From Myxococcales bacterium (GTDB taxonomy: Bacteria > Myxococcota > UBA727 > VGSZ01), in NCBI GenBank assembly GCA_023248635.1, contig JAHFED010000033.1:1-63627 (forward strand): a stretch of 63,627 nucleotides of DNA, written 5' to 3'. The notes under the pieces were generated by a model, which saw only the letters and a program-made list of their open reading frames with translations, was not told where the DNA came from and did not search any database. Each line of letters opens with the position of its first letter. Positions within the stretch are counted from its first letter, which is position 1. The position numbers were made by a program, and so were the translations under genes. This document shows positions 20,103-20,345 of this stretch, piece by piece.

Positions 20103-20345
20103 GCCCGGCTTGAGGGCAGAGAATTCATCGCCGCCAGGCGATGAACCGGTAGACAATTCGCCGACACGCGAAGCGCTGTCGGTGAATTCATCGCCGCCAG
20201 GCGATGAACCGGTAGACAATTGCCGACACGCGAAGCGCTGTCGGTGAATTCATCGCCGCCAGGCGATGAACCGGTAGACAATTCGCCGACACGCGAAGCG
20301 CTGTCGGTGAATTCACTGGCATGCGGAGCGCTGTCGGTGAATTTC
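20103..20345. repeat. Modular palindromic intergenic repeat, copy C: leader plus 3.5 tandem ~62-bp modules, in inverted orientation relative to copy B
   Basis: Leader gcccggcttgagggcagag, then three near-identical units gaattcatcgccgccaggcgatgaaccggtagacaattcgccgacacgcgaagcgctgtcggt (20121-20183, 20184-20245, 20246-20308) plus a partial unit. The units are the reverse complement of the copy-B module (1 mismatch), while the leader keeps the same orientation. Confidence 0.85.

Follow-up and report, generated by a model that had tools for sequence, protein, structure and literature searches.

Three intergenic loci of the window (the whole stretch of 63,627 nt analysed here), whose genes are otherwise ordinary housekeeping ones, carry a hairpin-rich repeat. 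Locus 1 lies between an alpha/beta hydrolase gene and recQ, both on the + strand, and locus 2 between tetR, which diverges from it, and a small gene on the + strand with a probable start at 8590. Locus 3 separates a nuoJ-like gene (Oxidored_q3; 19313-19867, - strand), the first of a nuoJ-L-M cluster diverging from the locus, from a downstream Ser/Thr protein kinase gene (20384-22087, + strand; 567 aa in the ENA/NCBI call), and its array makes up 243 nt of this 516-nt divergent control region. A previous sequence-only reading had placed the element between these two genes, which is correct, and had it overlap the 5' end of the kinase gene; such an overlap exists only if ATG 20321, inside the last repeat unit, is chosen, while the public gene call (ENA) starts at 20384, 40 nt past the repeat.

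The same reading had described a leader shared by the three loci and followed by a module of two hairpins, and both were recovered by pattern matching. The leader, CCCGGNYTGAGGGCAGAG, matched exactly at 1273-1290, 8323-8340 and 20104-20121, always on the + strand, so that this 18-nt pattern occurs three times in the window against 0.06 expected from shuffles. The first hairpin (TTCATCGCC-N4-GGCGATGAA) and the second (CACCGACA-N10-TGTCGGTG) were matched six times each, against 0.02 and 0.43 expected in the window, respectively, and every match fell within the three loci. Tandem repeat analysis with TRF gave a period of 63 with 3.1 copies and 98% matches at 20121-20315. The proposed reverse complementarity between the modules of loci 2 and 3 was also corroborated, since a repeat finder paired 8341-8440 with 20122-20221 over 100 nt at 96% complementarity, and the copy numbers given earlier for loci 1, 2 and 3 (1.5, 1.6 and 3.5) proved roughly right when the units were read side by side. 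Searches with nhmmer found no further copies, degenerate ones included, elsewhere in the window. The repeat at the three window loci is thus confirmed as real and far above chance.

Side-by-side reading of the arrays resolves them into two alternating hairpin units, A and B, each of which opens with the palindrome AATT. Unit A (AATTGTCTACMGGTTCATCGCCTGGCGGCGATG) is 33 nt long, has the layout AATT-GTCTACMGG-TTCATCGCC-TGGC-GGCGATG and forms a hairpin with a 9-bp stem and a 4-nt loop. Unit B (AATTCACCGACAGCGCTKCGCGTGTCGGYG) is 30 nt long, with the layout AATT-CACCGACA-GCGCTKCGCG-TGTCGGYG, and forms together with the flanking AATTs a 12-bp palindrome with an inner 3-bp stem and one bulge. In the unit alignment 96% of the stem cells are paired. 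Among 26 copies, hairpin A shows no variation in its 5' arm, its loop or the inner part of its 3' arm (TTCATCGCCTGGCGGCG); what varies is the GTCTACAGG linker, the outer part of that 3' arm and the loop of B. The linker of A contains CTAC in 17 of the 26 full units, 3 nt 5' of hairpin A and within the most variable segment; on the other strand, this reads as GTAG and precedes the extended B palindrome by 2 nt. The length of either unit is divisible by three, and the 63-nt module is free of stops in three of the six frames (unit consensus, read by hand), so that copies lying inside genes stay in frame; the peptide that they add is rich in Gly, Ser, Pro and Asp.

The three loci combine these units differently. 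At locus 1 the leader, which we call the L motif (GGCCACCCGGACTGAGGGCAGAGA, 1268-1291, + strand), is followed by a 9-nt fragment, one B and one A. The fragment (1292-1299, + strand; ACGGCGGTG with A1291) resembles the 3' end of a unit and joins L to the first AATT. The 30-nt unit B (1300-1329, forward) contains one G.T stem pair (CACCGGCA/TGTCGGTG), and the 33-nt unit A, with its closing AATT (1330-1366, forward), contains one A.C stem mismatch (GGCGACGAA). At locus 2 the L motif (GCCGCCCGGCCTGAGGGCAGAGA, 8319-8341, + strand) precedes a forward A-B-A array with a closing AATT (8341-8440; units at 8341-8373, 8374-8403 and 8404-8436). A second, degenerate L-like copy, GGCCGCCCGGCCTCAGGGCGCAGC (8545-8568, + strand), was read directly, with an nhmmer score not above background; it lies 105 nt past the array, and the likely ATG of the next gene (8590) follows 22 nt later.

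At locus 3 the L motif (GCTGCCCGGCTTGAGGGCAGAGA, 20100-20122, + strand), with a potential 6-bp hairpin CTGCCC/GGGCAG, is followed by three A+B modules on the - strand (20122-20309) and by a degenerate extra B. On the + strand the modules read rcA (20122-20154), rcB (20155-20184), rcA (20185-20217), rcB (20218-20246, with a 1-nt deletion), rcA (20247-20279) and rcB (20280-20309). The extra B (20310-20343, - strand), with two stem mismatches and a closing AATT, is the unit that contains ATG 20321. The whole locus 3 element is bracketed by a private 10-bp inverted repeat, the left arm of which is GAGCGGACGC (20090-20099, + strand) and the right arm GCGTCCGCTC (20373-20382, + strand), directly before the kinase ATG.

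In order to reach more copies, we translated the 63-nt module in its three open frames and compared the resulting peptides with a protein database. Seven proteins carry the translated repeat, and five of these were traced to contigs of ENA assembly ERZ27276474, to which the window also belongs. Hidden Markov models of A and B were then run on the window, on the five protein-traced loci and on L035, a contig of the same sample, and detected 14 arrays with 56 units in ~170 kb on seven contigs of the assembly, 11 of the arrays lying beyond the window, on five other contigs. When the arrays that served as bait are excluded, nine arrays remain in ~170 kb, or ~1 per 19 kb, a density that extrapolates from these ~170 kb to hundreds per genome. 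The other contigs appear to come from the same organism as the window, as judged from the shared sample, the GC content and the repeat family itself. The smallest arrays are a solo A (L040 12695-12731) and a solo B (L043 8982-9015), and the largest has eleven units, namely five full A+B modules and a truncated terminal A. Gene calls place them between divergent (four), tandem (three) and convergent (two) genes and within genes (four), on either strand. Thus, the suggestion of a dispersed REP/MITE-like repeat holds, and the 14 arrays on seven contigs contradict the alternative of a local duplication curiosity.

Unit identity is 92-93% between arrays and 94% on average within them, a weak contrast; the case for local expansion rests instead on variants shared by tandem copies and on the LipB alleles described below. 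Such locus-specific variants were found in L040 (the pair CACCGGCA/TGCCGGTG), in L041 (TATCGG) and at locus 3 (CTACCGG/GGCG); they point to local duplication and fit the slippage-type expansion that had been proposed. One array switches orientation internally, at an AATT junction: L039 2923-3006 consists of a partial rcA, an rcB and a forward A. An independent Logan contig has its two ends exactly within locus 1 (at 1335) and locus 2 (at 8346), and one ENA contig begins inside an array, as expected of a repeat present in many copies.

Searches at the DNA level proved less informative. The loose pattern TTCATCGCC-N4-GGCGATGAA, scanned against public genome contigs, gave mostly chance or coding-palindrome matches, only two of which look related, both in one Polyangiaceae MAG. 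DNA pattern scans of metagenome contigs gave no related copy and one chance coding match, and those of viral contigs and plasmids gave no matches. The pattern coincides with a coding stretch (..VENIHRH..AMN..) that is conserved in RND efflux pump genes of the Burkholderiales type, seen in L001, L004, L007, L008, L012, L014, L018, L021, L027-L029 and L031, and is as such a trap for pattern searches. The two related matches, in MAG WDNA12_bin.27, are intergenic hairpins (L032 4128-4240 and L017 2274-2300) with the same stem as unit A, of the form ATTCATCGCC-GTGA/TCAC-GGCGATGAAT; the one in L032 has GAATTC flanks and is accompanied by a second long GAATTC-bounded palindrome. From their sequence, these hairpins may represent a sister repeat family in another genus. 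At the end of contig L035 (15400-15523) we observed another repeated hairpin motif, AAAACGAAGTTTT / AAAAACGGAGTTTTT, beside a CGAGGCTTCGCCTCG palindrome.

Intragenic arrays are translated in frame in a LipB, an esterase and an Hpt protein. In the LipB of the window's assembly (P0127, ERZ27276474), a stretch of 78 residues takes the place of 13 in the solved structure of Thermus thermophilus LipB, and the sequences before and after it align to that protein. The insert of P0127, with 41 extra residues, comprises one module and an L-like segment, while the LipB of a second assembly (P0123, ERZ27301951) has 62 extra residues and two modules, one more than P0127. Nine LipB orthologues lack the insert and read ...GCN|FHVVE... 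at this position. In a related species, whose LipB is 82% identical over the aligned residues, the site is empty (TGC AAC TTT CAT), and six 20-kb contigs of that species contain no A or B unit. At the junctions of the insert, the left side reads AAT|T and the L-side has no AATT. In the esterase (P0122), a 159-nt (53-aa) array lies between the N-terminal alpha/beta-hydrolase core and the catalytic-His motif, and the protein aligns to E. coli YbfF before the insert and again at the catalytic-His motif after it; in the Hpt protein (P0125), the insert follows the Hpt domain. Of the polymorphisms for which the sequence-only reading had proposed a check, presence/absence is seen in the orthologous site of the related species, from which the LipB insert is absent, and copy-number variation between strains in the one versus two LipB modules of the two samples, LipB being the sole comparable locus.

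These data bear on whether the repeat could be a local duplication curiosity or an assembly artefact limited to the contig of the window. Short-read metagenome assemblies can collapse or mis-join repeats, and most copies come from one metagenome project. Against this stand the number and spread of the arrays, the agreement between the ENA and Logan assemblies, which are identical in sequence at the window loci, a second sample with a different LipB allele, and reading frames that are preserved across the inserts. We consider this explanation to have next to no probability. P0123 also lacks eight residues of P0127 (..LIEADGIDVVEADRGG.. in P0127 versus ..LIEADRGG.. in P0123), apparently, from the sequences, a deletion by slippage between two short direct repeats.

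The L motif had been regarded as a conserved leader and hence as a general part of the element, which the wider family does not bear out, since an L-like sequence adjoins only about half of the arrays (seven of 14 in a local-alignment screen of the array flanks). With the flank of L041 9181, recognized by eye, and a reverse-complement leader translated in P0124 as EFSALRPGG, nine cases are available, and in eight of them L points inward, at either end of the array. It lies on the left, pointing right, at loci 1 and 2, L039 10030 and L041 9181, and on the right, pointing left, at locus 3, L039 1469, L039 2970 and P0124; L039 5207 is the sole L not pointing inward. Since L can stand at either array end, the 'inversion' of locus 3 is a common architecture read from the other strand. 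Indeed, the same architecture is found on the opposite strand at L039 1469-1595 and at the P0124 locus, and the earlier view of locus 3 as a special flip or a second subfamily must be abandoned. Modules are lacking at two further copies of L, L035 9687-9710 and L041 3649-3667, and the conserved part of the motif is its inner one, not its outer tip. Within a gene for a vWA-domain protein (L040 4722-4733, - strand), 13 nt match the inner leader and joint exactly (GGGCAGAGAATTC), in isolation and with no modules nearby; this may be a chance occurrence or a relic.

The orientation of L, together with the AATT joints, brings to mind a MITE, in which L would be the terminal inverted repeat, the hairpins internal sequence, and AATT the target of a DDE transposase, with a 4-bp duplication. 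AATT indeed flanks every unit left and right, the solo A and the solo B included, the array-adjacent L-like motifs face inward in nearly every case, and the left junction of the LipB insert is AAT|T. However, none of the arrays is clearly capped by L on both sides and about half lack L altogether, L also stands alone, the L-side junction of the LipB insert has no AATT, and the conserved part of L is the inner one. In addition, units of 30-33 nt are far below the typical length of MITEs, and no insertion sequence with L-like ends was found in ~170 kb. The flanking AATTs speak for a possible target-site duplication, the check suggested previously, and the L-side of the LipB insert speaks against it. 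Compared with described MITEs (Correia, ERIC, BOX, RUP; PMC10969869, PMC3184786), the family is likewise made of small, non-autonomous dispersed repeats with occasional in-frame gene fusions and a possible target duplication (AATT), but it has no consistent pair of terminal inverted repeats, its units are several-fold shorter and no parental IS was identified. Terminal inverted repeats at both ends combined with a target-site duplication, which define a MITE, were not found, and we regard this origin as unlikely.

A cis-regulatory cassette was also considered, in which the hairpins would tune expression of the downstream gene, either as palindromic operators bound by a dimeric regulator or as RNA structure in a 5'-UTR or terminator, with L proximal to the promoter. 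In the window, L is on the strand of the downstream gene at all three loci, two of which are divergent promoter regions; TTCATCGCCTGGCGGCG of hairpin A is invariant while the linker varies; and the same stem occurs in the two intergenic regions of the Polyangiaceae MAG. The array folds strongly (RNA, -176.8 kcal/mol, z = -11; DNA, z = -9, both against shuffles), which is a consequence of the palindromes as such. Covariation in the stem of B amounted to one compensatory pair, which was matched or exceeded in 218 of 500 shuffles and thus gives no argument for selection on structure beyond recent common descent. Asymmetry between G.U and A.C mismatches, in which two cases favour the + strand and one the other, is uninformative on the transcribed strand. 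Rfam matched nothing at the repeats of the window, where one tRNA only was above its gathering score, and at locus 3 we found no sigma-70-like promoter and a single terminator-like site, outside the units. A sigma-54 reading of L, made by eye, was rejected, as the spacing is wrong and it fits locus 2 only.

Arrays that turn up in all gene contexts, on both strands and inside ORFs speak against a dedicated regulatory role, as do those translated in frame in LipB, the esterase and the Hpt protein, and at L039 1469 L points away from any gene start. The RNA-structure cassette that the earlier reading had entertained finds no support: Rfam gives no match, the arrays occur whatever the gene context, ORFs included, and covariation is not significant. 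A cis-regulatory function is, in our view, quite improbable, and the locus 3 array would merely occupy part of the divergent nuoJ/kinase control region.

REPs are short imperfect palindromes of ~20-40 nt, typically present in more than 100 dispersed copies. Short stem-loop palindromes are found here in the A and B hairpins and are reflected in the folding z-scores. Known REP families show tandem reiteration of dimers, in-frame intragenic REPs encoding 20-82 aa, and REPs within small palindromes (PMC3733652). The present family resembles REP/BIME systems (PMC3733652, PMC2817692, PMC3333891) in its 30-33-nt hairpin units, in its high local density and mostly intergenic, lineage-specific occurrence, in the forms that it takes (single, dimer and tandemly reiterated dimers with conserved linkers), and in that some copies lie in frame inside ORFs and some inside small pre-existing palindromes. 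It differs in that two unrelated hairpins alternate in the same orientation, whereas a BIME is built from one REP in alternating orientations; here spacing and linkers are regular (period 63), but the hairpins differ and an array mostly keeps one orientation, and by a strict definition the family is neither a BIME nor a MITE. Moreover, AATT bounds every unit, and no RAYT gene was seen in ~170 kb. Most REPs are defined by an unpaired GTAG or CGTC tag directly at the stem end (PMC3733652), whereas the GTAG/CTAC of this family is offset from the stems and variable. Unit lengths that are multiples of three also set it apart from the known systems.

The copies inside genes recall the in-frame RPE insertions of Rickettsia, which have been reviewed (PMC10969869) and of which RPE-4/6 have been treated as CGTC REPs (PMC3733652). 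In both cases palindromic repeats lie in frame in unrelated housekeeping genes, add a conserved peptide and keep the frame, while the orthologues of relatives have no insert; in our data, such in-frame insertion is seen in LipB, the esterase and the Hpt protein, and nine LipB orthologues have no insert. RPEs, however, are single elements of ~100-150 bp in AT-rich obligate intracellular bacteria, whereas the units here measure 30/33 nt and form tandem, mostly intergenic arrays in a 67% GC genome of free-living type. The copy-number difference at LipB, the sole comparable locus, is of the kind that characterizes VNTRs or minisatellites. MIRU-VNTRs are likewise dispersed, intergenic, minisatellite-like repeats with units of tens of bp whose copy number differs between strains, but they are not known to consist of two strong hairpins and are described in intergenic regions of operons, not inside enzymes. 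A CRISPR array was rejected, as there are no unique spacers, the units abut at AATT and the 'leader' is at either end or absent.

On balance, we consider it likely that the repeat is a lineage-specific, high-copy family of short palindromic repeats of the REP/BIME kind, RPE-like inside genes, in a host of 67% GC. Going by the names of the best protein hits, this host is probably an uncultured member of the Myxococcota, perhaps Polyangia-like. No dispersed palindromic repeat family of myxobacteria was found in a genomics review (PMC8538405) or in the literature searched; this family was not found described there, and the behaviours observed are all already documented for REPs.

The data demonstrate that the repeat is dispersed, occurs in both orientations, can lie in frame inside genes, is missing from an orthologous site and differs in copy number between samples, and a REP-like family could account for this as follows. 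Arrays would grow and shrink locally in steps of 63 nt, through slipped-strand mispairing or unequal recombination, and new sites would be seeded by a trans-acting enzyme that recognizes hairpins, most likely a RAYT-like single-strand transposase, the elements themselves being essentially selfish or neutral. Neither Pfam searches of the window nor the Pfam lists of L039-L042 revealed a transposase, RAYT or other; no RAYT is among the genes listed for L035 and L039-L043, and the only mobile-element genes of L043 are of the IS21 and serine recombinase types. Two arrays sit inside private palindromes: that of locus 3, with GAGCGGACGC at 20090 and its complement at 20373, and the solo B of L043, which lies between convergent genes in the loop of an 11-bp palindrome (CTCGGCCCCCA / TGGGGGCCGAG, 8912-9085). 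By analogy with REPs, this nesting hints at single-strand hairpins as targets; terminal inverted repeats shared by the flanks of the arrays were not found, the private palindromes being confined to these two loci.

A further possibility, which we think doubtful, is that A/B is a distinct, coding-compatible mini mobile element, moved neither by a classical RAYT nor by a MITE-type DDE transposase, that seeds hypervariable 21-aa linkers in enzymes and promoter regions of Myxococcota. Such a reading would draw on the unit lengths in multiples of three, the stop-free frames and the palindromic AATT joint, which would allow insertion in either orientation.

Whatever the enzyme, the biological surprise of the family is modest and its practical consequences are those for annotation and assembly. 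It breaks short-read assemblies, creates spurious ORFs such as P0121, and creates false N-terminal extensions, as with the FGase of L043 and, if its start is placed at 20321, possibly the kinase. It also offers a clean case, in a phylum for which we found little literature, of palindromic repeats both between and inside genes, including a variable number of 21-aa modules in LipB, an essential-type enzyme. The arrays could serve as strain-typing markers in metagenomes and, if the mobilising enzyme were found, the AATT-bounded units in multiples of three would provide a system for studying how selfish hairpins become tolerated protein insertions.

Several other repeats were noticed along the way. 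Six samples of the related species (L044-L049), which have identical LipB, differ in the spacing between the rhodanese and LipB genes (111-259 nt) and between recA and transketolase (511-722 nt). L049 carries intergenic arrays of 10-, 13- and 15-nt tandem repeats and a 69-nt repeat at 331-898, and the differences in spacing are VNTR-like variation from other repeat families. In the window, two tandem 31-nt units with the hairpins GTGCC-CTG-GGCAC and GTGCC-GTT-GGCAC lie upstream of atpD (31660-31722), and a motif after locus 2 (GCCCCAGTGGGC / GTGCCCC, 8441-8470) resembles them. A separate family at 63506-63627, which begins right after the stop codon at 63505 and runs off the window end, consists of a 35-nt unit with the hairpin CTTTGCGCCG-TGCCAA-CGGCGCAAAG, repeated perfectly in tandem at least 3.5 times. 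Among the genes of the window, a long ORF (26632-29799, - strand) encodes the shoulder and repeat domains of Major Vault Protein (PF11978, PF17795), which is unusual in a bacterium. In the product of another (10184-13291, + strand), HEAT repeats are fused to an ATP/ADP transporter of the TLC type, a class typical of intracellular bacteria and plastids.
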